A DNA stretch of 64,000 nt. It comes from a virus (lineage: Duplodnaviria; Heunggongvirae; Uroviricota; Caudoviricetes). Location of the stretch: the IMG/VR virus record IMGVR_UViG_3300047317_000139. One strand, 5' to 3'. A program made the position numbers and the translations under genes. Positions within the stretch are counted from its first letter, which is position 1; every line of letters begins with the position of its first letter. The notes beneath the pieces were generated by a model that did not search any database, was not told the DNA's origin, and was given only the letters and a program-made list of their open reading frames with translations. This document shows positions 12,986 through 47,000 of the stretch, one piece after another.

Positions 12986-13010
12986 CTGGCTCGATGAGAC
13001 CGGGCAGCGG

Positions 13011-13828: not shown

Positions 13829-14224
13829 ATGAGCGCTGCCAACGTCCCGATCGAGATCGACCAGGGCGAGGACTGGACGGGCACGGTCGTCTACACCGAT
13901 GACTTCGACCAGCCCTACAACGTGATCGCTCCGTGCCGGCTGGACATCAAGAACACCACTGGCGCGACCCAGCTCTCACTGTCCACTCCGGACGACGTAG
14001 TGCCTGATGGCACGATCCCGGACATCGGGCTGAGCTCGGAGATCGGGCTCCTGCAGCTGCACATCGAGGACAGTGTGACCGCAGCCCTGATCCCAGGGGT
14101 CTACAAGTACGACCTGTTCGTGACCGTGAACGATGGCAACGAGTACGCCGGGAACCAGGTCCAGCGGATCATCTACGGTTCGGTCACGGTGAACCAGCGC
14201 GTCACTCAGCTAGGGAGTCCGTGA
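13829..14224 (+). CDS. hypothetical virion/fibre-associated protein (131 aa)
   Basis: AGGAG RBS; beta-rich; first gene of the collagen/fibre block. Confidence 0.4.
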   Translation: MSAANVPIEIDQGEDWTGTVVYTDDFDQPYNVIAPCRLDIKNTTGATQLSLSTPDDVVPDGTIPDIGLSSEIGLLQLHIEDSVTAALIPGVYKYDLFVTVNDGNEYAGNQVQRIIYGSVTVNQRVTQLGSP

Positions 14225-14559
14225 TGGAGAGCGCCTGGGGTATCGACCACGGTGAGGTGAGCAAGGGATGGGGTGGAGACGTAGCCAGGAAGACGGCCAA
14301 CGCGGCCACCAAGGCGCGCTTGAAGGCCCCCAAGACTCCTCGCTCGAACGCGAGAAACGACTACTACCAGCGTGGGACGCGGAAGTTCCGGAACCTGACT
14401 GAGCGCAGCCACCGCAACGATGAGACTGGCCAGCACAAGATCTCTCCCATGCGTTCTCGGGCCTTCGCACCGCTGGAGCGGCAGTATCCGGCCTACGGTG
14501 GTCGCACCGGGTCGAACTGGGAGTTCAACGGGAACAAGCGCGTGAGGAAGGCCTTCTGA
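14224..14559 (+). CDS. basic protein carrying the N-terminal MESAWGIDHGEVSK motif (family member 1)
   Basis: ATG at 14224 (or GTG at 14221) overlaps the upstream stop. The protein is very basic and probably disordered. The N-terminal peptide is shared with the proteins at 34933, 40038 and 40340. Confidence 0.5.
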   Translation: MESAWGIDHGEVSKGWGGDVARKTANAATKARLKAPKTPRSNARNDYYQRGTRKFRNLTERSHRNDETGQHKISPMRSRAFAPLERQYPAYGGRTGSNWEFNGNKRVRKAF

Positions 14560-23903: not shown

Positions 23904-24082
23904 GCGAGACCCCGAGTGAGTCGCTGGCGGAGTTCGATCAGGTCGAGGAAGACCTGGAAGAGGAGCCCGAGGAGGGTCTCGACGTCGACTTCGATGGTGA
24001 CGAAGAGGTCGAGCCCGATGACTCAGCCGATCCCGGTGAGGGCGGCAACACGGGCACCGAAGGTGGGGAGGACGACGAATGA
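23900..24082 (+). CDS. highly acidic small protein (60 aa, >45% Asp/Glu)
   Basis: The sequence is MSETPSESLAEFDQVEEDLEEEPEEGLDVDFDGDEEVEPDDSADPGEGGNTGTEGGEDDE. The GTG start overlaps the upstream stop. Confidence 0.45.
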   Translation: MSETPSESLAEFDQVEEDLEEEPEEGLDVDFDGDEEVEPDDSADPGEGGNTGTEGGEDDE

Positions 24083-24782: not shown

Positions 24783-25100
24783 ATGCCGAGAACAGTGACA
24801 GTCACAGGATCCTTCCAGTACAAGAACGGTCGTCCGGTCCATGGCCTGGTCCGGTTCATGCCGAGCAGGCTCTGGGTGATCCAGCAAGAGATCGCCTGGG
24901 CCTGCTTGGCACCGGAAGTCCAGCTCGCGCGGGACGGGAGCTTCGCGGTAGAGCTCACTCCGACTGATACCGATGTGATCTGGTGGCGATACCGTGTGGA
25001 GTCGCCGGCGGGTGCCTGGGAGCTCTCAGTGCCCTGGGTCAAGACCGGGTACACGCTGAAGGAGCTGGTCAGTGAGCATCATCCTGGGACGCGGACCTAG
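24783..25100 (+). CDS. hypothetical beta-rich protein (~105 aa) overlapping the terminase start
   Basis: Likely ATG at 24783 (MPRTVTVTG); the table ORF starts at a GTG at 24765. Function unknown; it is not obviously a TerS. Confidence 0.35.
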   Translation: MPRTVTVTGSFQYKNGRPVHGLVRFMPSRLWVIQQEIAWACLAPEVQLARDGSFAVELTPTDTDVIWWRYRVESPAGAWELSVPWVKTGYTLKELVSEHHPGTRT

Positions 25101-26595: not shown

Positions 26596-28455
26596 ATGGC
26601 TGACGTGAGGCTCCCCCAGGGAGACATCTCCACCTGGGACGAGGACAACGCTGGCGACGAGATCCCCCAGCGCGTCGGCCCGATGGAAGAGCTCGGTGTC
26701 TCCGGGCTGAAGCGGGTCTCGGGCTACATCGACGAGGAGTTCCTGCCGGCGCTGCGTGGCCGCAAGGCGGTCCGGGTCTACCGGGAGATGGCGTCCAACG
26801 ACTCCATGGTCGGGGCGCTGCTGTTCAGCATCGACAAGTTGATCCGCGAGGTCGAATGGAAGGTCCTCCCTCCCGAGGGTGGCAAGGAGGGCGAGCAGGC
26901 CCAGGAGTTCCTCGAACAGTGCATGGAGGACATGTCTCACAGCTGGGACGACCTGATCGGCGAGATCCTCTCGATGATGACCTACGGCTGGTCCTGGCAC
27001 GAGATCGTCTACAAGAAGCGGATCGGGCCCTGGGAGAAGGATCCACGGAAGCGCTCGAAGTACACGGACGGCAAGATCGGCTGGCGGAAGATGCCGATCC
27101 GCGCGCAGGAGACGCTGATGCGCTGGTCCTTCGACGAGACCGGCGGGATCAGGGCAATGGTCCAGATGGCCCCGCCCCGGTACGCGACCACAGTGATCCC
27201 GATCGAGAAGAGCATCCTGTTCCGGACCTCCATCGCCAAGGGCAACCCCGAGGGTCTGTCCCTGCTCCGTAGCTCCTACCGCTCCTGGTACTTCAAGAAG
27301 CGCCTGGAGGAGTTCGAGGCGATCGGCGTTGAGCGAGACTTGGCGGGCATGCCTGTAGGAAGGGTCCCCGCGGACTACCTGACGGCGGCCAAGGGGACGC
27401 CTCAGGCGAAGACCGTGGATGCCTTCAAGAAGATGGTCCGCGGGGTCAGGCGTGACGAGAACGAGGGTCTGGTCCTGCCCACCCAGTACGACCCGGACAC
27501 CAAGCAGCCGCTCTTCGACTTCGAGCTGATGAGCTCGGGTGGCACCCGTCAGTTCGACACCAACGGGATCATCAACCGCTACGAGCAGCGGATCCTGATG
27601 AGCGTGCTGGCTGACTTCATCCTGGTCGGGCACGAGGACACCGGCTCCTACAGCCTGCACACCGACAAGACCGGCATCTTCCGGGCCGCTCTGAACGCCA
27701 TCACCAAGTCCATCGCAGATACTCTGAACCGGTACGCCGTGCCTCGGCTGTTCGCGGTGAACGGCTGGAAGCTCGACGAGCTGCCCCGGTTCGAGCCCAC
27801 CAACGTGGACCCGCCGGCCCTGGACCAGCTGGCTGCCTTCATCTCCTCGACCGCTGGAGCCGGCATGCAGTGGTTCCCGGACCCGGAGCTGGAGAAGTAC
27901 ATCCGCGAGATCGCTCGCCTGCCCGAGATGACCGACGAGGACGTGGACTACAAGCGGATCATGCTGGAGCAGCAGCAGGCCATGGAGTACGGCTCGGGGC
28001 AGATGGAGCTGCTCGGTCTGCAGCAGAAGGCTCAGATGACGGCACAGGGGATGACCCCGGAGCAGGCTCAGCTCCACTCCGAGACTCCGCACCCGGCGAC
28101 TGCGGACGCTCAGGCCCAGCAGGCGCAGATGCAGGCCGAGGCCACCAACCAGCCCCCGCCCGAGGACCCGAACGCAGGACCGCAGCATCAGCGCGAGAAG
28201 GAGAAGATGCTGCTGGCGGAGAAGACCGCTCAGAGTGCACACTCGCGCGAGAAGGAGAAGATGCGGCTGCAGGACGTGATGGCGAACCGGGACCACAAGC
28301 GGACCAAGGAGCAGATCCGGATCAAGGACCGCTCAGCCGCCACGAACACCAAGCTGAAGCTCCAGCAGCAGAAGGCCCAGAAGCCGGTCAACGCGCTGGC
28401 CGCGAAGAAGACTGCGAAGACGGCGAAGAAGCCGCCGCCGAAGAAGGGACGCTGA
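26596..28455 (+). CDS. portal protein
   Basis: Sits directly after terminase. At 619 aa it has a conserved-looking core and a C-terminal low-complexity Gln/Lys-rich tail typical of portals. Confidence 0.65.
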   Translation: MADVRLPQGDISTWDEDNAGDEIPQRVGPMEELGVSGLKRVSGYIDEEFLPALRGRKAVRVYREMASNDSMVGALLFSIDKLIREVEWKVLPPEGGKEGEQAQEFLEQCMEDMSHSWDDLIGEILSMMTYGWSWHEIVYKKRIGPWEKDPRKRSKYTDGKIGWRKMPIRAQETLMRWSFDETGGIRAMVQMAPPRYATTVIPIEKSILFRTSIAKGNPEGLSLLRSSYRSWYFKKRLEEFEAIGVERDLAGMPVGRVPADYLTAAKGTPQAKTVDAFKKMVRGVRRDENEGLVLPTQYDPDTKQPLFDFELMSSGGTRQFDTNGIINRYEQRILMSVLADFILVGHEDTGSYSLHTDKTGIFRAALNAITKSIADTLNRYAVPRLFAVNGWKLDELPRFEPTNVDPPALDQLAAFISSTAGAGMQWFPDPELEKYIREIARLPEMTDEDVDYKRIMLEQQQAMEYGSGQMELLGLQQKAQMTAQGMTPEQAQLHSETPHPATADAQAQQAQMQAEATNQPPPEDPNAGPQHQREKEKMLLAEKTAQSAHSREKEKMRLQDVMANRDHKRTKEQIRIKDRSAATNTKLKLQQQKAQKPVNALAAKKTAKTAKKPPPKKGR

Positions 28456-28456
28456 G

Positions 28457-31400
28457 ATGCCGTACAAGAGTGCTGCACAGCGCCGGTTCATGCACGCTCG
28501 CCACCCGGACATCGCCTCCCGCTGGGACGCTGAGATCAGGACCGCGAAGAAGAAGGGGAAGTACCGCAAGCCGCCCGAGCGGGTCGAGAAGATGTCGGCC
28601 AAGGACTCCGGCTGGCTGAAGCCCGTCATCGCCGGCACGGTCGCTGGTGGACTGGCCAACCAGTTCCCGCGCGTGCAGGACATCGAGCGAGCCCATCGTC
28701 GGAAGAAGAAGGGGCTCGTGAAGAAGATGCTGCTCCCGCTCTCCGACGACCCTGACTTCAACCAGGAGGCTGCTCAGCGGGCGTTCGACCTGGTGATGAA
28801 GATGGACGATGACACCGCCGAGATGTTCACCCACATCATGGTGGCCGAGCTGTTCACCGACGACATCGAGAAGAATCTCGGTGCTCTGCAGCACCACCTG
28901 GACGACGTGATCGCCAAGCGCGTCGAGCTGATCAAGCAGTCCCACCTCCGGATGGTCAGCAAGGGCATGGACCCCGAGCAGTCGGTGGCCTACGCCCAGG
29001 CGCTGGCGCTGATCTCCAAGGCCGTGGAGTGGGAGGAGAAGCTCCACCCCCGTGGTACGGCTGGTCGGTTCCGGACCAAGATCACCCACAACCAGGCCAA
29101 GGAGCTGCACCCGAAGACGGCACAGGCTCTGTTGGGTGTGGACACTCCCAGCCATCACCAGGCCTCGAACCACAAGCTCACCTCACCGGAGCGCACCCAG
29201 TTCCAGGATGAGTACCGGCAGCTGGCCGACTTCCTGTCCTCGGTGAACCAGTCCACCGGTGGGAGCGGCAACCACGAGGTGACCCTGCACTTCCAGGACC
29301 GCACTGGTCGCCAGTTCATGGAGCGGATGACGGGCACCCGCCCGGACGCTCAGCTCCTGGCTGACCCCAGCCTGACTCTGATCGGAGCCGAGGCTCGTCC
29401 GACCACGCTCACCGCTGGTGGTGCTGCCTTCGGTCTGGCTGGTGCGATGGGCACCAACATGTCTCCGTCCCAGGTCGGGGTGGTGAACGCTGCCAGCCGC
29501 AGTGGTGGCGCGTTCGCCGACCAGTGGACCCAGGCTGGGGATGCTGCACACTCCAACGCCAAGCTCTACGGCCGTACGGCTGCGGCTGGTCAGTTCCTGA
29601 GTGCAGTCGGTCCTCCGGGATCCAAGGCTCAGCTCGCCGGCAAGTTCGCCGAGATCGTCGGGAACGCGGGCCCGCAGGCGGAGAACGTGCTCGGTCCCAC
29701 AGCCCGGAAGACCGCCTACCGGTACCGGGGCACCGAGAAGACCCCGGACACCGAGCTCGTGCGCTCGTACGGGACGGGCATCGAGCAGGGCAAGCAGGCC
29801 GGTGTGGAGACCGGTGGCGCTCCGCTGTCGATGACCCAGATGGTGGCTCGTCGGAAGGCTCTGTCGGACCGTGCTCCTACCTGGGATGAGCGGGAGCTGG
29901 GCCGTCGCGCGGTGCTGTCGAACCTCCGGGAGACGCTGCCCAGCCAGGGGCTGTACGCCCTGCAGCTGGCCTCTGGGAACACTCCGCCCTCCGAGGGCGT
30001 GATCATCAACGCCGATGGGCAGCTGGCCACTCAGGCAGTGGGCTACGCCGATGACCACTACCTGCCGTTCAACCTGAAGAACCTGAAGGCGCTGAAGGGC
30101 GGGGAGTACATCCGGACTCGCTCGGTGGGCGGGCTGACCGCTGAGGACGTCTACACCGGTCTGATCTCCGGAGCACGCCAGGTCACGGTGACCTCGCGCT
30201 CGGGCACGTTCACCATGGAGTTCCAGGGTGACCTCCGTGGTGGTCGCCGGTACTCCGACAAGGCGCGTCGGATGACCCGGCGCTACGAGCAGATCCTGGA
30301 CGCGGTGCAGTCCGGGCAGGTGGAGCGGGCTCAGATCCCGCCCGAGATCAAGGCCACCATCGCGCGGCAGGTCCGGGAGCAGAACCCCGGCGAGGGCAAC
30401 GTGACGATCCGAAACATCATCAAGGAGCGGGAGAAGGAGTACCGAAACGACCCGGAGCTGAGCGATGTCGACGAGCAGGCCGCTCGACACCTGGCGATGG
30501 CCCGGTTCAACGACGACAACTCACCGGAGTCCAAGGCCTTCATCCGGCAGCGCCTGAACGACCTGCAGCGGAAGAAGCAGGTCAACTGGCAGCTGAACGG
30601 GGATGGGTACAAGGCTGCACTGGACGCGCTGGCCGAGCAGTTCCCGTACTACATCAAGACCGACTCGCACGTCCTGGACGACGAGGACAAGACCAGCCTG
30701 GAGCCGGACCGTGGCTACGTGGAGCCGGGGCGGAACCGGCCCACTGCGGCTCGGGGTGTGGGGCTGTACGGCACCACGATCAACCCCGGACTGAAGCGAG
30801 AGGGTCTCGCGGCTTCCACGGCCTCGCGCGCGGACTACCAGCGCGGTCGGTTCGAGCCTCGATCCAAGCCCGAGAGCGAGACCACTGAGGCGGGCGAGAA
30901 GAAGGAGGAGTCCAAGGACTCGCCCAAGAAGTTCGCTGCCCAGGTGGCCCAGGACATCAAGCACCGGACAGCGGCCGACTCGCTGTACGACGGGATGCAG
31001 TCTCCCCAGGTCGGGGAGAAGGTGAAGGCTGCCTTCCCCTGGCTGAACGACCGGGACCAGTACAACAAGATGATGGAGTCGCCCGAGGGTCCGGCTGCTG
31101 TGGACGCGCTGGTGTCCGCGATCACTCCGAACCTGTCGGCGTTCCCGCAGGAGGTGCAGAACGCGGCACGGGCCTGGAAGATCTCTGGCGTTCCGGTCGG
31201 TGACCAGAAGTTCGTGGCTGGCCGTTGGCCGACGACACCGATCCCCTTCCCAGGCCCAGGGTTCCAGAAGGGTGCACCGTTGGAGGCCCAGCAGGCTGCT
31301 TTCCGACAGGTCAACTCTGAGTACGGGCGGAGCTTGAAGTTCGGTGGCAATATCGGCTCGCTGAACGATGCCCAGCTGAAGCAGGAGCATGACTCTCTGG

Positions 31401-31963
31401 TGGGTGTGCTGCGCGCGATCCGGGCCAACCCGGACATGGTGCAAGCGGCCAACGAGCAGGGTGCTGAGGTCCGCCGGCAGATCGCTGCGGAGTTCTACGA
31501 CAGCGCTGCTCCGGACACCGTGGCCACTCTGATGAAGCGGCCCGAGCAGATCGAGCACCAGATGCTGAACCTCCAGAAGATGCGGACGCTGAAGGCGAAC
31601 GGGTCTTGGCCGGAGGGCACCGAGTACCAGCACACCGCTCGGGTGCCTGGTGTGTTGAACGAGGCTCAGCCGGCTGCTCCGATCTTCCGCACCGAGAACA
31701 GCGCAGACATCGTCGACGCCGAGGTAGTCGAGGAGCCGGTCAGCAATGAGCCCGAGCGCGCGAAGATGATGAAGCAGATGACTGACCAGCTGGCTCGTAC
31801 GGCTGGACATCGACTGCGGCAGAAGCCGGAGGCGGAGTGGTCTGAGTCTGACTACGACCTGGACACCGCGCTGAAGGACTACGCCGAGAACCCGCCGGCC
31901 AACTCAGCTGAGCTGGATGCCGTCCATGAGCACCTGTACGACCTGCACCGCCGGTCCATCTGA
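28457..31963 (+). CDS. large head-module protein (1168 aa) with a basic N-terminus MPYKSAAQRRFMHA...; possible internal/ejection or morphogenesis protein
   Basis: It follows the portal gene after a 1-nt gap. No recognisable catalytic motif. Unusually large for this position. Confidence 0.5.
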   Translation: MPYKSAAQRRFMHARHPDIASRWDAEIRTAKKKGKYRKPPERVEKMSAKDSGWLKPVIAGTVAGGLANQFPRVQDIERAHRRKKKGLVKKMLLPLSDDPDFNQEAAQRAFDLVMKMDDDTAEMFTHIMVAELFTDDIEKNLGALQHHLDDVIAKRVELIKQSHLRMVSKGMDPEQSVAYAQALALISKAVEWEEKLHPRGTAGRFRTKITHNQAKELHPKTAQALLGVDTPSHHQASNHKLTSPERTQFQDEYRQLADFLSSVNQSTGGSGNHEVTLHFQDRTGRQFMERMTGTRPDAQLLADPSLTLIGAEARPTTLTAGGAAFGLAGAMGTNMSPSQVGVVNAASRSGGAFADQWTQAGDAAHSNAKLYGRTAAAGQFLSAVGPPGSKAQLAGKFAEIVGNAGPQAENVLGPTARKTAYRYRGTEKTPDTELVRSYGTGIEQGKQAGVETGGAPLSMTQMVARRKALSDRAPTWDERELGRRAVLSNLRETLPSQGLYALQLASGNTPPSEGVIINADGQLATQAVGYADDHYLPFNLKNLKALKGGEYIRTRSVGGLTAEDVYTGLISGARQVTVTSRSGTFTMEFQGDLRGGRRYSDKARRMTRRYEQILDAVQSGQVERAQIPPEIKATIARQVREQNPGEGNVTIRNIIKEREKEYRNDPELSDVDEQAARHLAMARFNDDNSPESKAFIRQRLNDLQRKKQVNWQLNGDGYKAALDALAEQFPYYIKTDSHVLDDEDKTSLEPDRGYVEPGRNRPTAARGVGLYGTTINPGLKREGLAASTASRADYQRGRFEPRSKPESETTEAGEKKEESKDSPKKFAAQVAQDIKHRTAADSLYDGMQSPQVGEKVKAAFPWLNDRDQYNKMMESPEGPAAVDALVSAITPNLSAFPQEVQNAARAWKISGVPVGDQKFVAGRWPTTPIPFPGPGFQKGAPLEAQQAAFRQVNSEYGRSLKFGGNIGSLNDAQLKQEHDSLVGVLRAIRANPDMVQAANEQGAEVRRQIAAEFYDSAAPDTVATLMKRPEQIEHQMLNLQKMRTLKANGSWPEGTEYQHTARVPGVLNEAQPAAPIFRTENSADIVDAEVVEEPVSNEPERAKMMKQMTDQLARTAGHRLRQKPEAEWSESDYDLDTALKDYAENPPANSAELDAVHEHLYDLHRRSI

Positions 31964-33918
31964 TGACAGCAACCCCGTACGTCGAGCTCAGGTTCAACCC
32001 GACTGATCTGCGGCCCCGGGACCTCCCCAAGACGGCGGAGTTCCTGGGGAAGCCATCGGACGCGATAGAGGCTGCGCTGTGGGCTGCTCGGATGCGGATG
32101 ATCGAGGAGCTGAGGGACGAGGTCCGGGGGATGGTAGAGCCCACCCAGGCCTCGCTGCTGCGTGCTGCTGACCTGGCCTGGCAGGCAGTGTTCTGGCGGT
32201 ACCGGAAGATCTCAGCCCCGATCATGGCCGATGCCTACATCCGCGCGTACCGGGCTGCTGGAGCCGGTGATGTGCCGATGAGCGTGATCTACGACCTGGC
32301 TGACAAGCATGCGGAGAAGATCGGGGACTACTTCCACAACACCTCTCGTGACGCGCTGGCCGAGGGCTTCAACACCCTGGTCAACCGCAGGGTGCCAGCC
32401 AAGGCTGCGGCGGATCGAATCCTGGATGCCTACGGACTGACCCCGCGCCAGATGCGTGGGTTCACCTCGAACAAGCAGCTCATGATGTCGGTGGAGTCGG
32501 TCTCTCCGCTGGACGTGAAGGCTCGCGCGCGGGCCTACATCGACCGCTCCTTCACCCAGCGAGTCCGGAAGCTGGCGAACCAGGAGGAGCACAACATCGA
32601 CGAGCAGGCGAAGCAGTTCGCCTGGATGTGGATGCAGGACAAGGGGAAGATCTCCCCCAACGCTCAGAAGATGTGGGTCACCGCTCACGACGAGCGGGTC
32701 TGCCCGGTGTGCGGGCCTCTGCACGGTCAGAAAGTGGGGGTCAACGAACAGTTCCGGTCCCACGTCGGACAGTTCTGGACACCTGGCCTGCACCCGAACT
32801 GCCGGTGCGTGGTGCGGCTGATCGAGAACCGGTTCTCCAAGGTGCTGGTCCGCAAGGACGACTGGGACCCCAGGGAGCACCCGCGCGGGGGCGACCCGGA
32901 GAATCGTGGTCGGTTCTCTCGGGTGGCCGAGCGGCCTCAGGGAGACGTGATCAACATCGCGGAGCCTGATGTGATCGCGCCGGCTTCTCCGGTAGCTGAC
33001 ATCTTGGACAGCGTCCTGGCGGACATCCAGCTCCAGGCTGGAGCGTTGCGCCCGATCGCAGACATCGTGGCTCCTGCAGACATCACTGCACCGGTGGTTG
33101 ACATCACTCTGCCGGTGGCGGACATCGACGTGGCTCCAGTAGCAGACATCGCAGACGCTCCGGTAGCAGACATCCTGGGGCTGCTGCGAACGACACCCGT
33201 GGCTCCGCAGGTCTCCGACATCACGGTGGTCCAGAAGCCCAAGAAGAGGTTTGTTCAGTACCAGCATGTTCGCGACTTGTCGCAGCCCTACTACGCAGTC
33301 GTGGAGGGTGCTGTTGGTTCCCACCAGTTCGACCAGACGACCTTCTCTGCTGACCGGGAGCAGGTGATTAACGATGCTGCGGACACCCGAGAGAACGTGA
33401 TCAACGACATCATGCGAACACACGTCGTCGGCGGGGAGGTGAAGTACTCCGAGATGGTGGGCTCTTACGGTGTGCCTCTGCAGGCTCGGATACCTGCTGA
33501 GGAGTTCCGGAACATTCTGGAGGCTGCGGCACAGCACTACACGTCGGAACCGCCATACGACGCGATGATCGACGTGGACTACTACGACCCAGACGGCCAG
33601 GAGGGGGACGCTCCGATTGAGACCACTGGGCGGACGGTGCTGGACATCATTCACGCGGTGGGTGTCGACGCCGATCATCTAGAGGTCAGCGTGGTGATGT
33701 TGGACCAGGTGCACTCCGAGGACGTTGGTCGAGGAACTGCCCAGCGTGGTGAGCGTGTGGGACATCTATACGACCAGTACGACGTCACCGGAGATTACGT
33801 GGTGAACGACTGGCAGCCGGAGTACGAGGAAGGCACGGGGACCCCGAACGGGGTAGACATCTACTACATCCAGCCTCACGATCCAGCCACCGGCTGGATG
33901 GAGGAGCCCGCCGACTAG
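31963..33918 (+). CDS. MuF-like (SPP1 gp7-like) minor head / head morphogenesis protein with a repeat linker and a C-terminal domain of unknown function
   Basis: Carries the diagnostic motif HDERVCPVCGPLHGQ...LHPNCRCVV of the Phage_Mu_F family. This is followed by about ten (A/V)DI repeats (PVADIL, PIADIV, PVVDIT, PVADID...) and a ~250-aa C-terminal domain. Confidence 0.7.
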   Translation: MTATPYVELRFNPTDLRPRDLPKTAEFLGKPSDAIEAALWAARMRMIEELRDEVRGMVEPTQASLLRAADLAWQAVFWRYRKISAPIMADAYIRAYRAAGAGDVPMSVIYDLADKHAEKIGDYFHNTSRDALAEGFNTLVNRRVPAKAAADRILDAYGLTPRQMRGFTSNKQLMMSVESVSPLDVKARARAYIDRSFTQRVRKLANQEEHNIDEQAKQFAWMWMQDKGKISPNAQKMWVTAHDERVCPVCGPLHGQKVGVNEQFRSHVGQFWTPGLHPNCRCVVRLIENRFSKVLVRKDDWDPREHPRGGDPENRGRFSRVAERPQGDVINIAEPDVIAPASPVADILDSVLADIQLQAGALRPIADIVAPADITAPVVDITLPVADIDVAPVADIADAPVADILGLLRTTPVAPQVSDITVVQKPKKRFVQYQHVRDLSQPYYAVVEGAVGSHQFDQTTFSADREQVINDAADTRENVINDIMRTHVVGGEVKYSEMVGSYGVPLQARIPAEEFRNILEAAAQHYTSEPPYDAMIDVDYYDPDGQEGDAPIETTGRTVLDIIHAVGVDADHLEVSVVMLDQVHSEDVGRGTAQRGERVGHLYDQYDVTGDYVVNDWQPEYEEGTGTPNGVDIYYIQPHDPATGWMEEPAD

Positions 33919-33940: not shown

Positions 33941-34936
33941 ATGAGCGACATCCACGAGCTGCTGGCCACGGACGAGACGTTCCGCGAGGTCGCTGATCTG
34001 CTGTTCGGTGGCGGAGGAGATGAGCTCATCTCCAAGATCAGCCCGACTCAGTCTGATCTGGCCACTCACGACAAGCGCAAGCGCATGACCACTGCGGGTC
34101 TGAGCGCTATCGGAGCCACGGCTGGTGCAGCTGGTCTGGGTCTGGCCGGCAAGGAGACCTACCACGGGATCAAGAACGCCCCGAAGGGCCTGTCGGCGAC
34201 CGGAAAGCTCGTGCACGCGGCGAAGACCAAGAAGCTCGCCACTGCGCTGGTCCCGCTGGAGGTGGCAGGCCTGGGTGGTGAGCTGATGGCCACCAAGATC
34301 CTGCACGGAGACACCAAGAAGAAGATCCCGGTCTCCAAGGCCTCCGACCTGCTGCTGAACAACGCCAGCGAGATCCCCACCTCCAAGGGCAAGCTGACCC
34401 GGGCTGTGATCTCCAGCCCCAAGGTCCGGAAGAAGGGGGTGGAGTACACCAAGAAGGGCGCGGGTGTGCTGAAGCGAGTCCCGGACAAGCTGGTCACCCA
34501 CCACAAGGTCGAGAAGGCCGACACCGAGATCGACGTGGTCTGGGAGGGCGACTTCGCCAAGGCCGACGCTGACAAGCAGCAGGTCTTCGGCTGGGCCAGC
34601 GTGGTAGAGGTGGACGGCCAGCCGGTGGTGGACCTGCAGGGCGACTACATCTCCACCGACGAGATGGAGAAGGCTGGCTACCAGTACGTGATGAAGTCCC
34701 GGAAGGGTGGCGACATGCACCTGAGGGACAACTGGGCTCCGATCCAGAAGTCGGAGATGATCGAGAGCTTCATCGTCACCCCCGAGAAGCGGGACGCGAT
34801 GGGCCTGCCGGACTCGGTGCCGACCGGCTGGTGGGTCGGGTTCCAGGTCCAGGACCAGCAGGTCTGGAGCGACATCAAGGACGGGAAGCGGACCGGGTTC
34901 TCCATCCACGGTCACGGGAAGCGGAGCCCGGCATGA
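33941..34936 (+). CDS. XkdF-like (peptidase S78-2-like) putative prohead protease with a Lys-rich N-terminal extension
   Basis: The C-terminal QQVFGWASVVEVDGQPVVDLQGDYISTDEMEKAGYQYV...GDMHLRD...GWWVGFQVQDQQVWSDIKDGKRTGFSIHGHG resembles the XkdF family pattern. Confidence 0.5.
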   Translation: MSDIHELLATDETFREVADLLFGGGGDELISKISPTQSDLATHDKRKRMTTAGLSAIGATAGAAGLGLAGKETYHGIKNAPKGLSATGKLVHAAKTKKLATALVPLEVAGLGGELMATKILHGDTKKKIPVSKASDLLLNNASEIPTSKGKLTRAVISSPKVRKKGVEYTKKGAGVLKRVPDKLVTHHKVEKADTEIDVVWEGDFAKADADKQQVFGWASVVEVDGQPVVDLQGDYISTDEMEKAGYQYVMKSRKGGDMHLRDNWAPIQKSEMIESFIVTPEKRDAMGLPDSVPTGWWVGFQVQDQQVWSDIKDGKRTGFSIHGHGKRSPA

Positions 34937-36291
34937 GCCTCTCAGCCTTCGGGATCGACCACGGTGGCATCTCCAAGGCCGAGGACCCGAACCGGAAGAA
35001 GCAGGTCGCTGTAGCTGCCGGCGGCACTGCTGCGGCGGGCGGAGTCGGACTGGCTGCGACCAAGATCCCTGAGCACTCCCACTACGACAAGAAGACCCGG
35101 AAGTACCTGCACTCGCTCCCCGCGGGCGAGCACGAAGTGCCGACCTCGATGCTGTCGACGCGACCCAGGAAGCTCGGTGCTCGGAAGCAGCAGGCTCCGT
35201 ACGTGGCAGCGATGGCGCAGGAGCGTCCGCTGGAGTCCTTCCACGCCTCTCCGGTCCCGGTCACCCGATACAAGGGCAAGGGCCACCCCACCATCCAGCG
35301 GGACAACGCGCACACGGTGATGGCCAACGCGATGAAGGGCCGCACCACCAAGATCAAGATCGAGGATGCTCCTGGCTACCGCCCGAACCGGAGGACTGGC
35401 GAAGAGCTGGTCAGACGCGGGCAGATGCGGTATCAGCAGCGCCGGCTGAAGCTGCACACCAACCTCTCGGAGAAGGCGATCGAGGGGATCCGAGGGAAGT
35501 ACACCGACAAGTCCCGAGCGGCCAACACGACCAAGCGCCCGCACGGGGTGGTAGAGGACACCCTGAAGTACAACCCGAAGAAGTACTCGGTGGCCCGAGC
35601 GGTGGGACGAGCCGGGAACCTCGCGGCAGTGGTGAAGAGGGATGATCGCCGGGGGCGAGACACAGCCGCCGGCGTCACCGGGGCGGCTGGGGTAGGAGCG
35701 CTGGCATCTACGCCGGTGCGGCGCTCAGCGGCCAAGGTGGATGTCTCCGGCGGCTCGATGAGCGCGTCTGACGCCAAGAAGGTCGTCTCTCCTGGATACC
35801 GCCCTGGGAACAAGCGCGCGATCCGGACGATGGCCGCGAACCTGGGTCACCTGGAGAACAAGCCCACCACGGTGGTCAGGTACAAGGGCGGACACGTGGT
35901 CCCCTTCGACGGGAACCACCGAGCCTCTGCTCGGGTCGCACGCGGGGACGCACGAGTCCCGGTGAACGTGGTCGAGGGCGGCGAGCGCCCTGCGGTCTCC
36001 GTGGCTCGGAACGCCTACCACGTCGCTCAGCAGAAGGTGCACCAGTCGCGGCTGGACCGGGACGTGTTCAAGCCCAACTCCAAGATCGGCCGGCACGCTG
36101 GTGAGACCAAGGCCTACTCTGCGATCGCCAACGCATCTCCGCTCCGGTCCGGGAAGCGAGTCGCGATCGGGTCCACCAAGCTAGGTTCGGGCCCGACCAA
36201 GGCAGTGTTGAGGACCAAGCAGGGTCTGGCGCTGGGTGCCAGTGCCGCGCTACTGGGTACCTCTGCTCACCTGCACAGGAAGAAGAGCTGA
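34933..36291 (+). CDS. very basic (Lys/Arg-rich) protein, 452 aa, with the N-terminal MSLSAFGIDHGGISK motif (family member 2); putative internal virion/DNA-associated protein
   Basis: ATGA overlap with the upstream gene. Strongly basic composition. The shared N-terminal motif is present. The table ORF 34831..36291 starts upstream inside the previous gene. Confidence 0.5.
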   Translation: MSLSAFGIDHGGISKAEDPNRKKQVAVAAGGTAAAGGVGLAATKIPEHSHYDKKTRKYLHSLPAGEHEVPTSMLSTRPRKLGARKQQAPYVAAMAQERPLESFHASPVPVTRYKGKGHPTIQRDNAHTVMANAMKGRTTKIKIEDAPGYRPNRRTGEELVRRGQMRYQQRRLKLHTNLSEKAIEGIRGKYTDKSRAANTTKRPHGVVEDTLKYNPKKYSVARAVGRAGNLAAVVKRDDRRGRDTAAGVTGAAGVGALASTPVRRSAAKVDVSGGSMSASDAKKVVSPGYRPGNKRAIRTMAANLGHLENKPTTVVRYKGGHVVPFDGNHRASARVARGDARVPVNVVEGGERPAVSVARNAYHVAQQKVHQSRLDRDVFKPNSKIGRHAGETKAYSAIANASPLRSGKRVAIGSTKLGSGPTKAVLRTKQGLALGASAALLGTSAHLHRKKS

Positions 36292-37166
36292 TGAAGCCAC
36301 TCATGAGCGACGCGGAGATGCGTCGTCGGCAGAAGCTGCAGGGCAAGATCGGCCGGACCACCTCCACGCTGGGCCTGTCCGGAGTGGCGCTGACCGGTGC
36401 TGCGATCGCGACCAAGAAGAAGCCAGGCGCGCTGAAGGCAGTCACCAAGGTCCCAGGACTCAGCCGAGTCAGCCATGGTGGTCTGAAGAACGCCGCCTTC
36501 CACACCTCGATCGCGGCTGGCGGCATCGGCGGTGTAGGAGGGTTCAACCAGGCAGCGATCTACTCGGCAGAGTCCAGGAAGCGCAAGGCAGCGACTGTGG
36601 TGAAGAAGGAGTTCGGCATGGAGATGGGCTACTACGGGGAGGAAGGCCGTCCCCTCACTCACCAGCAGATCGAGGCCGAGATCGAGAAGGCCTGGACGCC
36701 ATCGGCCTCCAACTTCGACTCCGAGCGCAGCCGGCACCGACGTACTGGTGCCTACCAGGCCGGGGCCATGGCAGCTGCCGGTGCTGGTGGTGCGTACGCC
36801 GCCCGGCACGGGGTGAAGGCCGTACAGCAGGGCAAGAAGATCCAGTCGATCCCGGACTCGGCTCAGATCAAGACGGTCGAGGAGACGGTCAGGCCGAAGG
36901 CAGGCAAGGAGTTCACCCGGAACGTGAAGCGGGCCGGGAAGACGTTCCGGGCTCTCGACGCGGACGTGGTCGGGCGGACCCTGAAGCATGGGGGCAAGGC
37001 CGGGCTCGGGCTGGCGGCGGTCGGTGGCGCGGCTGCCACTCACTCCGCGATCAACCGAAAGAAGAGCGGTTCCTGGCAGTCGTACGCCAAGCGCGATGCC
37101 ACATCAGCGTTCGGAGTCGATCACAGCGACAACCCGAATGGACAGCACCGTGAGACTGAGAACTAG
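36291..37166 (+). CDS. Gly/Ala/Lys-rich head-module protein with a C-terminal ...SAFGVDHSDNP motif-like segment
   Basis: ORF table. Gly-rich and low in complexity. Near its C-terminus there is a copy of the SAFG(V)DH peptide. Confidence 0.45.
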   Translation: MKPLMSDAEMRRRQKLQGKIGRTTSTLGLSGVALTGAAIATKKKPGALKAVTKVPGLSRVSHGGLKNAAFHTSIAAGGIGGVGGFNQAAIYSAESRKRKAATVVKKEFGMEMGYYGEEGRPLTHQQIEAEIEKAWTPSASNFDSERSRHRRTGAYQAGAMAAAGAGGAYAARHGVKAVQQGKKIQSIPDSAQIKTVEETVRPKAGKEFTRNVKRAGKTFRALDADVVGRTLKHGGKAGLGLAAVGGAAATHSAINRKKSGSWQSYAKRDATSAFGVDHSDNPNGQHRETEN

Positions 37167-37177
37167 AGGTAGATGAG

Positions 37178-37996
37178 ATGCCACGACCGAAGAACAACCT
37201 GACTGACATGGAGATCGACGAGATCTCCACCGTCGACAAGGCCGCGAACCAGCACTCACGGTTCGTCATCGCGAAGCGGGCTCCCGAGGAGGAAGAGATG
37301 CCCAAGCTCTACAACCAGGAGGGCCAGCCCCTCGACGAGGACCAGCTGGAGTTCGGCGACATCGTGTACGACGACACAGGCGCTGCCTACGAGTACGTCG
37401 AGAACGAGGTCGAGGACGAAGCTGTCGAGAAGGAAGAGGACCAGCCAGTGCCCGAGCTCGCAGGAGTGGGCAAGTCGGCGTTCTTCGAGAAGCAGGCCAA
37501 GGCCGGCAGCTTCAGCGCATCGGTGATGGAGGAGCTCAGCAAGGCGTTCTCCGACAAGGACCGTGACGCGGTCATCGCCAAGGCGCTCGGTCGGGTCGAG
37601 GAGCTGGAGAAGGCTCAGGCCGAGTCCACGAAGATCGCCAAGGCCGAGCGCGACCTGCGCCTGACCCGTGAGTACATCTCCAAGGCGGCGGAGTACAACC
37701 TCCCGATCCCCGCCCAGGAGCTCGGCCCGGTGCTCTACCGGATGGCCGAGACCATGAGCTTCGAGGACTGCTCGGTGATCGCCAAGGCTCTGGAGACGGC
37801 GGGCGAGATCATCTTCGAGGAGAAGGGCTACACGGGCGGCGGCGACAACTCCGACGTGTACTCCCAGGTCGAGGCTCACGCCTACGAGGCCTTCGGCAAG
37901 GCCGAGAACTTCGACGCTGTCTCAGCCATCAACACGGTGTTCGACCAGAATCCGGACGCCTACGACGAGTACCTGCGCTCGCAGCAGGCCCGGTAG
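37178..37996 (+). CDS. scaffolding protein (acidic, helical/coiled-coil)
   Basis: Acidic and Glu/Ala-rich, immediately upstream of the decoration-like and capsid genes. Confidence 0.5.
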   Translation: MPRPKNNLTDMEIDEISTVDKAANQHSRFVIAKRAPEEEEMPKLYNQEGQPLDEDQLEFGDIVYDDTGAAYEYVENEVEDEAVEKEEDQPVPELAGVGKSAFFEKQAKAGSFSASVMEELSKAFSDKDRDAVIAKALGRVEELEKAQAESTKIAKAERDLRLTREYISKAAEYNLPIPAQELGPVLYRMAETMSFEDCSVIAKALETAGEIIFEEKGYTGGGDNSDVYSQVEAHAYEAFGKAENFDAVSAINTVFDQNPDAYDEYLRSQQAR

Positions 37997-39483: not shown

Positions 39484-40038
39484 GTGCAGATGGCCATCCA
39501 GCTGCTGAAGAACGACGGGATCTCCTTCGTCGCGGCCAAGAACTTCACGTACGCCGGCGAGGAGTACGTGATGGGGCAGGAGTTCCCCCAGGAGAAGGCC
39601 AAGAACATCGAGACGCTCGTCCGCGCTCGGTTCGTGATCCCGGTCCTCGAAGAGGGCGCGCTGCGTCCTCGGCACTGGCACACCCATGTCCGCACCCGCG
39701 AGGAGGCGGAGGAGTACCTGAACCGGGACCGGGTGCAGCTGGTCTGGCCTGCGGAGCCGGACACCCAGGTAGACCTGGAGGTGCTCACCAACCCCGAGCT
39801 CACTCCTGAGCCGGAGGGAGATGGCGAGGATGCCCTGGCTCCTGCTGAAGATTCTGTGGAAGAGCCTCCTGCTGACCCTGAGCCGCCGGAGAGCCTCGAA
39901 GAGACCTACGACCCGGCTGAGCACAACGTAGACGCGGTCCTGGAGTACCTGGACGAGCATCCTGAGCAGCGGGACGCGGTCCTGGCGATGGAACGCGCAG
40001 GACGCGGTCGCAAGGGGCTCCTGGGAGACGATGAGTGA
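39484..40038 (+). CDS. hypothetical head-module protein (184 aa, acidic Pro/Glu-rich C-terminus)
   Basis: ORF table; GGAG RBS. Confidence 0.45.
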   Translation: MQMAIQLLKNDGISFVAAKNFTYAGEEYVMGQEFPQEKAKNIETLVRARFVIPVLEEGALRPRHWHTHVRTREEAEEYLNRDRVQLVWPAEPDTQVDLEVLTNPELTPEPEGDGEDALAPAEDSVEEPPADPEPPESLEETYDPAEHNVDAVLEYLDEHPEQRDAVLAMERAGRGRKGLLGDDE

Positions 40039-40340
40039 TGGAGAGCGCATTCGGCGTTGACCACGGCTCCGAGGAGATCTCGAAGCTGGGACTGAAGCCG
40101 CCTGGCATGGGCACGCTGAAGCCGATGGTCCAAGGGATGCAGAGCGCGTTCAAGATGGGCGCTCAGGGCGTGCACGGCCCAGCAGCTTCGGTTGGTGCTG
40201 GGCGCGCGATGGGCGCTGGTGCGATGACCCGCAAGGTCGGCCAGTTCGGGATGAAGAACAAGAAGCCGCTGGCCATCGGCGCAGGAGCAGCTGGCGCTGG
40301 TGCTGCTGGAGGCATGCTCACGAGCCGTAGGCGGTTCTGA
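40038..40340 (+). CDS. small basic Gly/Ala-rich protein with the N-terminal MESAFGVDHGSEEISK motif (family member 3)
   Basis: ATG at 40038 (or GTG at 40035) overlaps the upstream stop. The shared N-terminal peptide is present. Confidence 0.5.
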   Translation: MESAFGVDHGSEEISKLGLKPPGMGTLKPMVQGMQSAFKMGAQGVHGPAASVGAGRAMGAGAMTRKVGQFGMKNKKPLAIGAGAAGAGAAGGMLTSRRRF

Positions 40341-40660
40341 TGCAGAGCGCGTGGGGGATCGAGCACGGGGACGCGGTCTCCAAGATGCGCCTGCCCCGTC
40401 GACTGGTGGGTCCGAAGCCACCCCCTCCGGGGGCCCAGCGAGCTCCGTCTCGGGCCACTCAGATCAAGGGCAAGCTGAACCGCCTGGGAGAGAAGGACAT
40501 CTCCGTCAAGGAGCTGGGCGCGAGCGCGGGACGTGGCGTGGGCAACGTCGGTAGGTTCATGCAGAACCGTCCCGGTCTCACCGGTACTGCACTGGTGGGA
40601 GGAGGCGGCGCGGCGGGCTACAAGCTCGTGAACGACAGGTCCAGGAAGAAGACGCGCTGA
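40340..40660 (+). CDS. small basic Gly-rich protein with the N-terminal MQSAWGIEHGDAVSK motif (family member 4)
   Basis: Tandem paralogue of the preceding gene. ATG overlaps the upstream TGA. Confidence 0.5.
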   Translation: MQSAWGIEHGDAVSKMRLPRRLVGPKPPPPGAQRAPSRATQIKGKLNRLGEKDISVKELGASAGRGVGNVGRFMQNRPGLTGTALVGGGGAAGYKLVNDRSRKKTR

Positions 40661-44050: not shown

Positions 44051-47000
44051 GTGACGGCTCAGCCGGTTGAAGCCAACGTCGTACTGACGAGCGACAACTC
44101 TCAGTACGACCGGGCGATGACCACATCGGCTGGGAACACCGACAACCTGTCGATGTCGGTCGACAACCTCGGCCGCAAGATCAACAACCTCGCCAAGACC
44201 GCCGGCAAGACGCTGATCGGGATCAGCGCTGCCGACGTGGCCACGATCACGGGTGCCACTGCGGCCTGGTCCAGCTACGAGAAGCAGGTGTCTCGGCTGC
44301 AGGCGCAGTCGGCGATCCTGACTCGTACCAACGCCCAGCAGACCCTGGTGATGAAGGACTACACCGCGGCGGTCAAGGGGCTGCGGACCGAGTACGGGAC
44401 TACCACCAGCGAGGCCTCGAAGCTGGTGGAGACCCTGTCCAAGGTCACCAGCATGCGGCAGACCCGGGACCTGCAGGACCTGAGCAAGGTCTTCGTGGAC
44501 ATGTCCCACGCCACCGGTGAGAGCTCCGATGGCCTGGCCTCCTCGCTGACCAACCTGCAGCGAGTGATGGGCACCCCGATCAACTCCAAGAACACTCGGC
44601 AGTACGCCGACCAGTTCACCTACCTGGCTGCCCAGACCAACACTTCGGCCCAGGGCCTGATCGACTTCACCTCCCAGCTGGCTCCGGCCGGGCGGCAGAT
44701 CGGGATCACCTCGAATCAGATGGCCGGGTTCGCCACCGCCTTCGCCAAGGCTGGCCAGGACAGCGGACCTGCAGCCACCGTCTTCACCAAGATCACCACC
44801 GACATCGCGCACTCGATGCAGACCGGGTCTCCGGAGATCGCGCACTACGCCAACATGCTGGGGGTCACCCAGAAGGCGTTCAAGGCGATGTCGGGTGGTG
44901 AGCAGGTCGTCGCGATCCTGCAGAACCTGCAGGACCGGGGCAAGGGCGCTGCCACCGAGCTGAGTCGGCTGGGTCTGGACGGACCTCGTTCGATCCGAGC
45001 GATCCAGGCAGTGCTGCAGCAGGGTGGTCTCGCGGAGTCGATGCAGCTGGCGACGAGTGGCGGGTCCAAGGGCGCTGCTGCTGAGGGTGCTGCTGCCTCC
45101 ACCAAGGGTCTGTCCGACGAGGTCAACAGGCTGACCCAGAACTTCCAGCAGCTGGCCGAGACCATGGGTGGCTACTTCGGGCCGGTCATGGAGAAGTTCC
45201 TCCAAGGCATGAACAAGGCCCTGGAGGTGGTCAACAAGATCGCTGAGGGCCCGATGGGCAAGTTCGTGGCCCTGGTCATGACCGTGGTAGCTCCGCTGGC
45301 CAGTGGAGCCGGGATGCTGCTGCTCTTCGCCGGTGCGCTGATGAAGGTGGCTACGGCCTTCGCGGCGTTCCGTTCCAGCGCGGCGTACGGCATCCGCGAG
45401 GGCTTCGCGGGTGGTGGACCACTGGGCTCAGGAGCTGCGGGTCTGCGCGGGCAGCAGCTGGAGCAGGCTGGCACCTGGTTCCAGCGGGCCCAGTATCGCG
45501 GTGGTCAGACTGCTGGCAGCCTGGCTTCCAGTGCGTTGGGTGCTGCTCGTGGGGGATGGCAGACCGCGCGAGGCTGGGCTGACCCGAACTACACCCCGGG
45601 ACCGCCGCGGAGCGCGCTGTCCTACATGGCTGGCGGACTGGGTCGTGGGATCGACATGTTCCTGACCCCGACCTTCGACCAGATGCGGTACGCCGACCCG
45701 ACCAAGCGCGAGCGCAGCCGGTTCTGGCAGCGGACCCAGATGGGACAGAGCGCGGCTGTCTCCGACGCCGCGGCCACCGCTGACGCGGCCAGGGAGCGAG
45801 CGCGCACTGCTGGCGCGGTCTACCAGTCGATGCTGGGCTCGCAGGGCGCGAGCGCTGATCAGACCGAGCAGGCTCGGCGGGACATGCACCGGGCCAACCA
45901 GGAGGCGCTGTCGACCACGCGAGCCTCGGTCGCTGCTCAGAAGGACCAGATCGCGACGGTTCAGCGGCTGAACCAGGAGACCGGCAACACCACCACCGGG
46001 TTCCGCCGGCTCGCCCAGTCCGCTGGCGGGTTCGCGGCTGGTGCCGGCGGCGGAGTCCTGGGAGCTGGCCGGGCGGGGCTCAGCGCCCTGGCGCGTTCCC
46101 CGATCGCTGGGAACATCGCGTTCGGGCTGGGTGGGGCGGCACTAGGGGCTGCTGGCGTCCAGTCGCAGGCGCTGATGTTCGGTGCGATGGGCGGGATGAT
46201 GGGCGGGGCTCCGGGTGCTGTCGCCGGTGGCGTGATCGGGGCGGCTCTGGACGCTCGGCAGCGGACCCAGAACTTCAACCAGATCGTGGCTGCTCGGCAG
46301 CAGGCACTGAGGGAGGGTCTCCCGTCCGGGATCCTCTCCGCGAACCAGGCTGCGACGTCGGAGTTCCAGCCGTACCAGCAGTACCAGCAGGAGAGCATCT
46401 GGGGTCGGCTCACTCATCCGGGGTCGATCGTCGGGAACGTCGGACGAGGGTTGGGCTCCGCCTGGCAGTTCGCCAGTGGCGGCGGCGACGCCTACAAGAC
46501 CAGGCAGGACCAGGCCGACGCGGCCAAGACGCAGTCCACAGCCCTGATCGGCGCGTTGACCGACGTCTCGCGGCGGCAGGGCGTGTCGCTGAAGGGCATC
46601 GACCCCACCACCCAGTCCGGCATGGCCAAGCTGGACGAGGTCACCAACAAGCTCGCTCCGACCATGGAGAAGCTGGGGATCACCACCGACGACATCGTCA
46701 AGGCCTACCAGGGTCGAGGCACCTCGGGTGGAGCGCAGACCTGGAAGACCATGATGGGGAACCTGGTCAGCCCGGACCAGGCACTGGGGTACATCAGCGC
46801 AGCAGGGGGCACGGCTGCTGGCGCGGCGATGGCAGACTCCGCGTCGGCTCGTCGGTCGATCCGGCTCCAGGAGGACGTCGGGGCCTTCTACAACGCCACC
46901 AGCGACATCTTCAGCAAGCTGCACAAGCAGGGGCTGACCGACCAGCAGATCATGGCCTCGACCGAGAAGGCGCAGGCCCGGATCGGAGACGAGAACAGCC

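Follow-up and report, generated by a model that had tools for sequence, protein, structure and literature searches.

The window analysed here is a 64,000-nucleotide stretch of DNA from a tailed virus of the class Caudoviricetes (IMG/VR record IMGVR_UViG_3300047317_000139), with a GC content of 64 % and a siphovirus-like structural module on its + strand. Two adjacent genes of this module, called A452 (34933..36291) and B291 (36291..37166), encode very basic proteins of 452 and 291 amino acids (aa). They are the subject of this work, together with a short peptide tag that both proteins share with other small basic proteins. We lean towards the view that A452, B291 and the other tagged proteins are cargo of the virion.

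Both genes are located on the + strand between a protease gene and the gene of a scaffold-like protein, also on the + strand. The 331-aa protease (33941..34936) matches Pfam PF14550 (Peptidase_S78_2/XkdF; E 8e-18) and PHROG head maturation protease families. The 272-aa scaffold-like protein (37178..37996), whose position is conserved, is acidic (net charge -31, isoelectric point (pI) 4.35) and free of the tag. A452 has a pI of 10.98 and a net charge of +52 (K+R 18.6 %, D+E 7.1 %), and B291 a pI of 10.39 and a net charge of +25 (K+R 16.5 %, G+A 28.5 %). A net charge of at least +6 was found for just 14 of the 73 window genes in a crude gene map. Because A452 and B291 are basic and the acidic 37178-37996 gene fills the scaffold role, neither was considered a scaffolding protein.

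The stop codon of the protease gene overlaps the start codon of A452 (ATGA), and the start codon of B291 overlaps the A452 stop codon by one base (TGATG), so that A452 is translationally coupled both to the protease gene and to B291. Identical 452-aa and 291-aa products were obtained by independent gene callers on at least 12 public contigs; an alternative B291 start, M5 (36303), is used by one public annotation. The ratio of nonsynonymous to synonymous substitution rates (dN/dS), determined against a 91 %-identical relative, was 0.17 for A452 and 0.30 for B291; the corresponding values of the capsid and scaffold genes were 0.07 and 0.37. Both genes are under purifying selection, and the overlapping starts, the concordant calls and the dN/dS values together demonstrate that A452 and B291 are real, constrained proteins.

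The first-pass annotation of the window had described the pair as extremely basic, low-complexity proteins with a shared motif, encoded between a protease-like gene and the scaffold gene. The reading frames, the basicity, the nature of the flanking genes and the motif, N-terminal in A452 and C-terminal in B291, were all confirmed. The low complexity applies to the uncharged Gly/Ala-rich segments of 14-19 aa, three in A452 and four in B291, but not to the remainder, as low-entropy sequence constitutes only 13 % of A452 and 25 % of B291 by a SEG-like entropy measure.

Domain composition of A452 and B291

A word-indexed search gave 31 homologues of A452 with 58-93 % identity, all metagenomic and several present on contigs of ~81 kb. 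Only 20 clusters were found at E <= 1e-3 in an exhaustive hidden Markov model (HMM) search of 1.84 billion cluster representatives, which indicates that the A452 family is rare. In the alignment of 26 sequences (A452 and 25 close homologues) approximately 110 columns are invariant. The AlphaFold2 (AF2) model of A452 comprises two confident α/β domains, at residues ~45-205 and ~260-380, with low-confidence linkers between them. In view of these invariant positions and foldable domains, the earlier description of A452 as histone-like throughout could not be confirmed. No match of A452 or B291 to HU, IHF or histone families was found in Pfam and NCBIfam.

The fold of A452 can be assigned with high confidence to the ParB/sulfiredoxin (Srx) type, present as tandem modules. 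Two structure searches were in agreement on this fold. In Foldseek each of the first ~48 matches was to ParB, KorB, Noc, Srx, SbnI or Atu1540, although the E-values (0.03-1) were weak. The HMM search of 1.84 billion proteins connects A452 (E 3e-8 to 2e-4) with proteins containing a GGHHR motif, which is carried by the remote relatives P0111, P0113, P0117 and P0118. As a profile, these relatives match SbnI, Noc, ParB and Spo0J in the PDB, GGHHR being aligned to the 'DGVHR' of SbnI, and the hhalign comparison of their profile (A3) with the A452 family profile (A1) gave a probability of 98.3 % (E 1.5e-14). A452 and its 25 close homologues showed no match to Pfam ParB_N (PF02195), even at E <= 10. 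A PDB sequence search with the A452 profile returned a lone 'bacteriocin' match, which was insignificant (E 2.2) and was discarded.

The two halves of A452 originate from an internal duplication and align at profile level (hhalign, 94.8 %, E 5e-8); the simple pairwise alignment of the repeat is weak (z 2.9) and profile-profile comparison was needed. Single-module proteins of ~240 aa also exist (P0107, P0108, P0110). Downstream of its N-terminal tag, A452 contains the first uncharged Gly/Ala-rich segment (residues 25-43; 35005..35061), disordered in the AF2 model, followed by the degenerate module 1 (residues ~45-154; 35065..35394; predicted local distance difference test (pLDDT) score 70-90). 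The sequence RDNAH (35299-35313) occupies the position of the GxHR motif in module 1, both the Gly and the Arg being lost. The second Gly/Ala-rich segment (residues 244-260; 35662..35712), predicted to be helical at 244-258, precedes module 2 (residues ~261-375; 35713..36057), in which DGNHR (D326-R330; 35908-35922) is invariant in all 26 sequences. The protein ends with a C-terminal Gly/Ala-rich segment and a basic tail (GLALGASAALLGTSA-HLHRKKS; 36223..36288), with a predicted helix at 423-451.

A452 resembles ParB CTPases, Noc, KorB, Srx, SbnI/SerK kinases and Osa-type nucleases in its predicted α/β fold and in the position of its G-x-H-R-type motif (DGNHR). The α/β core was found in both modules, and the Arg of the active-site motif in module 2 and not in module 1. 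Unlike members of the superfamily, A452 has no helix-turn-helix (HTH), no dimerisation domain and no GERRxR box, and one of its copies lacks the motif Gly and Arg. Since RDNAH stands in module 1 where module 2 has DGNHR, the catalytic or nucleotide-binding competence of module 1 has probably been lost. Module 2, in which the motif is kept, is probably competent for nucleotide or DNA binding.

The 69 homologues of B291 are 164-502 aa long. They share the N-terminus MSDAExRRRxKLQGxIGRTTSTLGL, the segment GGIGGVGGFN, the acidic core GMEMGYYGEEG...EKAWTPSASNFDSExSRxKR, a further Gly/Ala-rich segment followed by RKK, and the C-terminal WQxYAKRDxTSAFGVDH tag, usually followed by SDNPNGQHRETEN. The AF2 model of B291 consists of four long helices with one Gly/Ala-rich segment each. 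The first two (residues 7-52 and 62-101; pLDDT ~70-80) pair as a predicted N-terminal hairpin (36357..36545, + strand) that holds the Gly/Ala-rich segments at residues 23-41 and 72-85, the latter with GGIGGVGGF; G78, G81 and N86 are conserved. The acidic core of the window protein (EFGMEMGYYGEEG...EKAWTPSASNFDSERSRHRR; residues 107-151; 36609..36743, + strand) is conserved in the homologues, and G116, G119, K133, W135, E145, R148 and R151 are invariant in 36 of them. B291 appears to be a helical protein of the glycine-zipper type and may be membrane-active. Its matches to DUF6072 and EbpS were weak, far under threshold, and were ignored.

The peptide tag and its distribution

The motif shared by A452 and B291 has the consensus SAFG[IV][DE]HGx[IV]SK (~12 residues). 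When the window was translated in all six frames, five copies of the pattern [ST]A[FW]G[IV][DE]H were obtained, in comparison to 0.005 copies expected from codon shuffles. Four of the copies start two to three residues past the start Met and the B291 copy is situated thirteen residues before the protein end. In A452 the tag SAFGIDHGGISK comprises residues 4-15 (34942..34977), of which S4, F6, G7, H10 and K15 are invariant in 26 homologues. In B291 the tag SAFGVDH (37104-37124) and its conserved tail SDNPNGQHRETEN cover 37104..37163, and a further module follows in longer relatives.

The other three copies are present in small basic proteins, encoded on the + strand like A452 and B291. An open reading frame (ORF) of 101 aa (40035..40340; MMESAFGVDHG...; net +9) has a C-terminal Gly/Ala-rich segment followed by RRRF, and the adjoining ORF of 106 aa (40340..40660; MQSAWGIEHG...; net +15) a C-terminal Gly-rich segment followed by a basic tail. 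The ORF of 112 aa (14221..14559; MMESAWGIDHGEVSK...; net +14) lies outside the head module. Directly on its 3' side a collagen-repeat protein (Pfam Collagen; 14559-15236) and a 2288-aa fibre-like protein with collagen-like Gly-X-Y runs (15246-22112) are encoded; a collagen-like gene was also present in ten IMG/VR tag loci among the matches listed.

Every tag codon varies synonymously among the copies (Ser, Ala, Gly, Val/Ile, Asp/Glu), which demonstrates that selection acts on the tag peptide and not on DNA or RNA. The possibility that the tag is a nucleotide element, such as an RNA signal or a recombination hotspot, was ruled out on these grounds. The motif string was not found in the literature searched.

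To establish the distribution of the tag, the back-translated pattern M-x-SAFG[IV][DE]HG was scanned over IMG/VR. At least 194 N-terminal copies were detected in this way, spread over 115 loci, and a single locus had as many as five. Among the matches listed, 135 of 135 unique complete tagged ORFs were net-positive (minimum +6, median +12). These ORFs encode 58-404 aa (median 114) with unrelated bodies, an uncharged segment of at least 14 aa being present in 62 % of them, and the consensus past the fixed pattern is G-[ED]-[IV]-S-K. In 109 of the 115 tag loci listed, homologues of the head or neck genes of the window were present, the capsid proteins being 50-100 % identical. The same pattern gave 11 single matches in unrelated taxa in 596 Gb of bacterial and archaeal genomes (GTDB), and ~9 were expected by chance, as estimated from the ~37 bits of information in the pattern. 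This is chance level, so the tag is specific to this phage clade. The GTDB matches are accordingly uninformative on the host, and the identification of a host or prophage via the tag was given up; no prophage copy of the tag family was detected in the bacterial genome scan.

The 91 %-identical relative L006 has seven tag copies in 21 kb. Two of its tagged ORFs, both of 72 aa (9786-10004 and 14546-14764), are absent from the window; one is placed between the protease gene and A, and the other directly after the capsid gene. A third tagged ORF of L006 that the window lacks (16464-16745; entry 16476-16745) has its tag directly ahead of the GTG at which the start of an 89-aa gene was called. The extra ORFs suggest that tagged genes are quickly gained and lost.

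Relatives of A452 and B291 are fused and split at the tag. P0019 (739 aa) comprises an extra basic module, the tag, A and the N-terminal part of B, and P0030 consists of the tag, module 2 of A only, and B. In P0038, P0050 and P0061 B is followed by the tag and a further ~130-aa module, and in P0085 and P0097 another Srx-like module ("GGTHRHIA") stands ahead of B. P0113 (624 aa) has an N-terminal tag, a ParB module, ~300 residues and a second tag. The gene at the A position in L003 encodes no N-terminal tag and its product ends with ...MSAFGIEH; many proteins end one to three residues past the tag His. The repeating unit can be written as [tag]-basic-[Gly/Ala-rich segment]-[body]-[Gly/Ala-rich segment]-RKK. 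The extra regions of the fused relatives P0113, P0019 and P0085 matched no Pfam family.

The protease has a C-terminal XkdF/S78_2 domain (residues 205-328). Its N-terminal ~70 aa contain a degenerate tag (LLFGGGGDELISK), KRKR and an uncharged Gly/Ala-rich segment of 22 residues (49-70), and this tag-like N-terminus is also kept in L003 and L006.

Several tagged or fused proteins terminate with a basic cluster followed by F, AF or SAF(L/N), for example ...SRRRF*, ...RVRKAF* and ...RKNSAFL* (window 40326-40340 and 14545-14559; P0038, P0050, P0055, P0061). Such C-termini resemble the first half of the tag. HExxH-type motifs, e.g. ...GHEASHANVKRS...EEARAD, were noticed in T051, T071, T026 and T081 (loci L025, L040, L010 and L052), and a 'GPGVYFA' stretch follows the ParB module of P0113. 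The corresponding peptidase and ADP-ribosyltransferase (ART) modules were by-eye hints with no support from Pfam and were not retained.

Possible roles of the tagged proteins

In phage T4 a capsid-targeting sequence is all that the internal proteins have in common. By this peptide they are packaged into the scaffolding core, and they are injected along with the DNA (PMC3012670). The arrangement found here is of the same type, a short terminal peptide being common to otherwise unrelated proteins encoded alongside head genes. As with IPI, IPII, IPIII and Alt of T4, these proteins are mostly small and basic and their genes adjoin that of the prohead protease. Unlike in T4, the tag, which has no similarity to the T4 sequence, is also found at the C-terminus and at module junctions. 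The phage itself also differs from T4, being siphovirus-like and combining an XkdF-type protease and a Mu-type portal with a capsid protein of the lambda-E type. The cargo-loading peptides of encapsulins are likewise short N- or C-terminal peptides, present on diverse cargo and bound to the interior of an HK97-fold shell. They provide a conceptual analogy for a tag at either end, although their sequence is different and the shell is a nanocompartment and not a virus.

The second precedent is DdrB of phage P1, a head-packaged protein with a ParB domain; polyvalent proteins, in which 'DdrB-like ParB' domains occur and for which head packaging and delivery have been proposed or shown, are encoded beside MuF and portal genes (Iyer et al. 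2017, PMC5512222). A452 resembles this group in having ParB/Srx domains encoded beside virion genes and a MuF gene (two genes upstream), and in its modular, shuffled organisation with extra modules in relatives. Unlike polyvalent proteins, it comprises two copies of one domain type and no recognised metallopeptidase, methylase or helicase domain, and its modules are separated by Gly/Ala-rich segments and tags, which have not been described for polyvalent proteins. No similarity of A452 or B291 to proteins of P1 or other cultured phages was detectable by tblastn.

The T4-like terminal peptide on diverse basic proteins encoded alongside head genes and the precedent of P1 DdrB lead us to favour, with modest confidence, basic head cargo that would be addressed by the tag and delivered with the DNA. 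The proposal of internal head proteins, DNA-associated and/or injected, made in the first-pass annotation, agrees in its general form with the synteny, the charge, the tag and the ParB/Srx fold, but a histone-like low-complexity condenser is too simple a description.

The tag, possibly with the adjacent basic cluster and a Gly/Ala-rich helix, would dock the proteins into the assembling procapsid. Candidates for the docking partner are the capsid interior, the extended portal and the acidic scaffold-like protein, which might act as an electrostatic partner of the basic cargo. The XkdF-type protease, itself provided with a degenerate copy of the N-terminal module, might trim the tag or separate modules at the tag junctions. 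Once the scaffold leaves, the basic proteins would remain with the packaged DNA until infection, when both would exit the capsid together. Inside the newly infected host A452 might bind or nick DNA or hydrolyse nucleoside triphosphates, activities that have been suggested for domains of the P1 DdrB type. Self-association or membrane permeabilisation during delivery is conceivable for B291 and the small tagged proteins, which we take to be helical and glycine-zipper-like.

The identification of the tag as a packaging signal is tentative. It might serve for docking, for cleavage by the protease, or for both as in T4. That it is located at the very ends of the proteins and is missing from the scaffold, capsid protein and portal argues for recognition or docking as its primary function, and its absence from these three proteins led to rejection of the tag as a general maturation-protease site. 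Since the tag is also found at the module junctions of fused proteins, processing could still take place there.

A possible role of the Gly/Ala-rich segments is suggested by the effector Tde1 of the type VI secretion system, a delivered DNase in which a glycine zipper drives membrane translocation (PMC10240207). With Tde1, T7 gp14-16 and P22 gp7/20/16, which are internal or delivered proteins with membrane-active helical segments, B291 could be compared by analogy. Unlike these podovirus ejection or pilot proteins and Tde1, to which no homology was detected, B291 belongs to a phage with a long tail, in which the 1897-aa tape measure protein would normally form the conduit.

Several observations weigh against capsid cargo as interpreted above. 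A452 and B291 are not recognised by any Pfam, PHROG or NCBIfam model, and neither these proteins nor the tag peptide gave a tblastn match in 50,697 phage records, so there is no cultured relative. The ParB_N matches of P0111 and P0113 reach 21.1 and 17.7 bits (E 3e-4 and 4e-3), below the gathering threshold of 26.3 bits. The confidence of the B291 model is low (pLDDT 58), and therefore its fold was not assigned and a fold search was not justified. The Gly/Ala-rich segments are just marginally hydrophobic (Kyte-Doolittle mean 1.0-1.45), which makes membrane insertion speculative, and indeed the most speculative point of the interpretation. Finally, the tagged ORF 14221-14559 is located beside fibre genes outside the head module, and no tag is present in the scaffold, capsid protein or portal.

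It is unlikely that A452, B291 and the other tagged proteins are pure counter-ions, i.e. 'histone-like' DNA condensers with no fold-dependent activity or role after ejection. The very high pI and net charge, the positive charge of all tagged ORFs listed, and the contacts of T4 internal-protein lysines with DNA phosphates (PMC3012670) are consistent with such a function. The two globular ParB/Srx modules, the DGNHR motif and the ~110 invariant positions, however, exceed the constraint expected from charge alone, and the low-complexity content of just 13-25 % and the A452 dN/dS of 0.17 point in the same direction. A structured two-domain A452 with an invariant active-site-like DGNHR makes a nucleotide- or DNA-handling effector more probable than a mere counter-ion.

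A purely assembly-related function also seems doubtful. The proteins would then be polyprotein-like factors, with the tag chiefly as the cleavage site of the XkdF-type protease and the modules as auxiliary scaffold or core components of the procapsid, later degraded or expelled and hence absent from mature virions. The position of the genes between those for the protease and the scaffold, the tag at the junctions of fused relatives and the free interchange of fused and split versions could be explained in this way, and G-[IV]-[DE] is similar to the small-x-Glu sites that prohead proteases of the T4/phiKZ type recognise. Most tag copies are, however, situated 2-3 residues from the N-terminus or a few from the C-terminus, where a cut frees tiny peptides only. 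Moreover, the true scaffold and the capsid protein have no motif, and enzyme-like conserved domains are unexpected in a disposable scaffold.

Even less probable is a function of A452 as a non-virion, ParB-like DNA handler in the infected cell, involved for instance in packaging, genome-end protection or replication, with the head operon reflecting only late timing. ParB/Srx domains are common in phage DNA metabolism and partition, and the fold assignment of A452 fits. On the other hand, neither an HTH nor a centromere-binding domain was found in A452, and no ParA partner is encoded in the vicinity. Its gene is coupled in translation to those of the protease and B291, and its tag is common to many small non-ParB basic proteins of the head and neck module. 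That the two are membrane proteins of the infected cell (lysis-related, holin-like or involved in superinfection exclusion) is highly improbable, for the uncharged 14-19-aa segments with their basic flanks and GxxxG or small-xxx-small patterns, and the long helices predicted for B291, could be read as transmembrane helices, but their hydrophobicity is marginal, the genes lie inside the head operon and not in a lysis cassette, and A452 is mostly of the soluble α/β type.

Both the use of a targeting peptide by internal head proteins and the packaging of proteins with a ParB domain are known already. In the family libraries and literature searched, this tag, both protein families, the tandem ParB/Srx architecture and the use of one tag at both termini and at junctions are undescribed, as is the siphovirus setting, probably that of an actinophage. 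It is conceivable, if somewhat short of probable, that an uncultured clade of high-GC soil siphoviruses evolved the addressing of capsid cargo independently of T4, with a 12-residue tag at either terminus or at junctions loading a changing repertoire of basic proteins into the head, to be delivered together with the DNA. This repertoire may include tandem ParB/Srx, glycine-zipper helical and possibly peptidase-like or ART-like modules, encoded by at least five to seven genes per genome.

Of all phage products, the packaged internal and ejected proteins are the earliest that a host encounters, and they include known anti-restriction and anti-defence factors. To our knowledge they are well characterised in a few model phages only (T4, P1, T7, P22, N4 and phiKZ-like phages). 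The tag is a sequence-defined handle by which candidate cargo can be picked directly from metagenomes, and A452 represents a previously unannotated tandem ParB/Srx family in a siphovirus head operon. The locus also provides evidence that the borders of the tag are the points at which the candidate cargo genes are fused, split and shuffled. Should a packaging function of the tag be confirmed, the head contents of this clade would become computationally tractable. It would then be a second, independent handle for loading foreign proteins and a portable signal for engineering actinophage-type capsids, and the cargo set would form an unexplored pool of early anti-host and anti-defence effectors.

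Neighbouring genes and the source clade

The putative large terminase gene (25072-26574, + strand) was assigned by position and size alone, with no Pfam match. It is followed on the + strand by genes for a Mu-type portal (26596-28455; PF06074), a 1168-aa ORF (28457-31963) and a MuF-like protein (31963-33918; PF04233). On the 3' side of the scaffold-like gene lie a cement protein gene (PF09956) and the gene of the lambda-E-type major capsid protein; neck proteins, a tail tube protein and a tape measure protein are also encoded in the module. The order portal, 1168-aa ORF, MuF, protease, A, B, scaffold, cement and capsid is kept on many contigs.

A blastn search with the region against 50,697 deposited phage genomes gave no nucleotide match. 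At the protein level, the capsid and portal have relatives with 40-48 % identity in siphoviruses of Arthrobacter, Microbacterium, Rhizobium and Pseudomonas. In the two phages inspected, Arthrobacter phage Kovu and Microbacterium phage ValentiniPuff, the order upstream of the scaffold gene is different and no comparable genes are present there. The only pointers to the host are a WhiB-family transcription factor, encoded at 12858-13472 (E 2e-17), and the GC content, both suggestive of actinobacteria.

The C-terminal ~170 aa of the portal (27943-28455; residues ~450-619; end ...AKKTAKTAKKPPPKKGR) form a Gln/Lys-rich extension, which is not covered by any cultured-phage portal, the best tblastn matches ending at residue ~451. 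The extension is also present in L003 and L006 and could be a docking site for tagged proteins. The 1168-aa ORF, located between the portal and MuF genes, had no Pfam, PHROG or NCBIfam match; it is conserved in relatives, where it has 1220-1232 aa, and starts with MPYKSAAQRRFMHA. Its product is probably another large head-associated protein. In the MuF-like protein the middle third, after the MuF domain, is acidic and contains PVADI/APVADI-type repeat units (...PVADILDSVLADIQ...APVVDITLPVADIDVAPVADIADAPVADIL...), seen in the translation only.

The tape measure protein (44051-49744; 1897 aa) comprises both M23 peptidase and SLT transglycosylase domains. A separate M23 peptidase of 146 aa (24079-24519; E 1e-24) is encoded next to the putative terminase gene on its upstream side, and its gene overlaps an Asp/Glu-rich ORF of 60 aa (23900-24082) with a net charge of -28.

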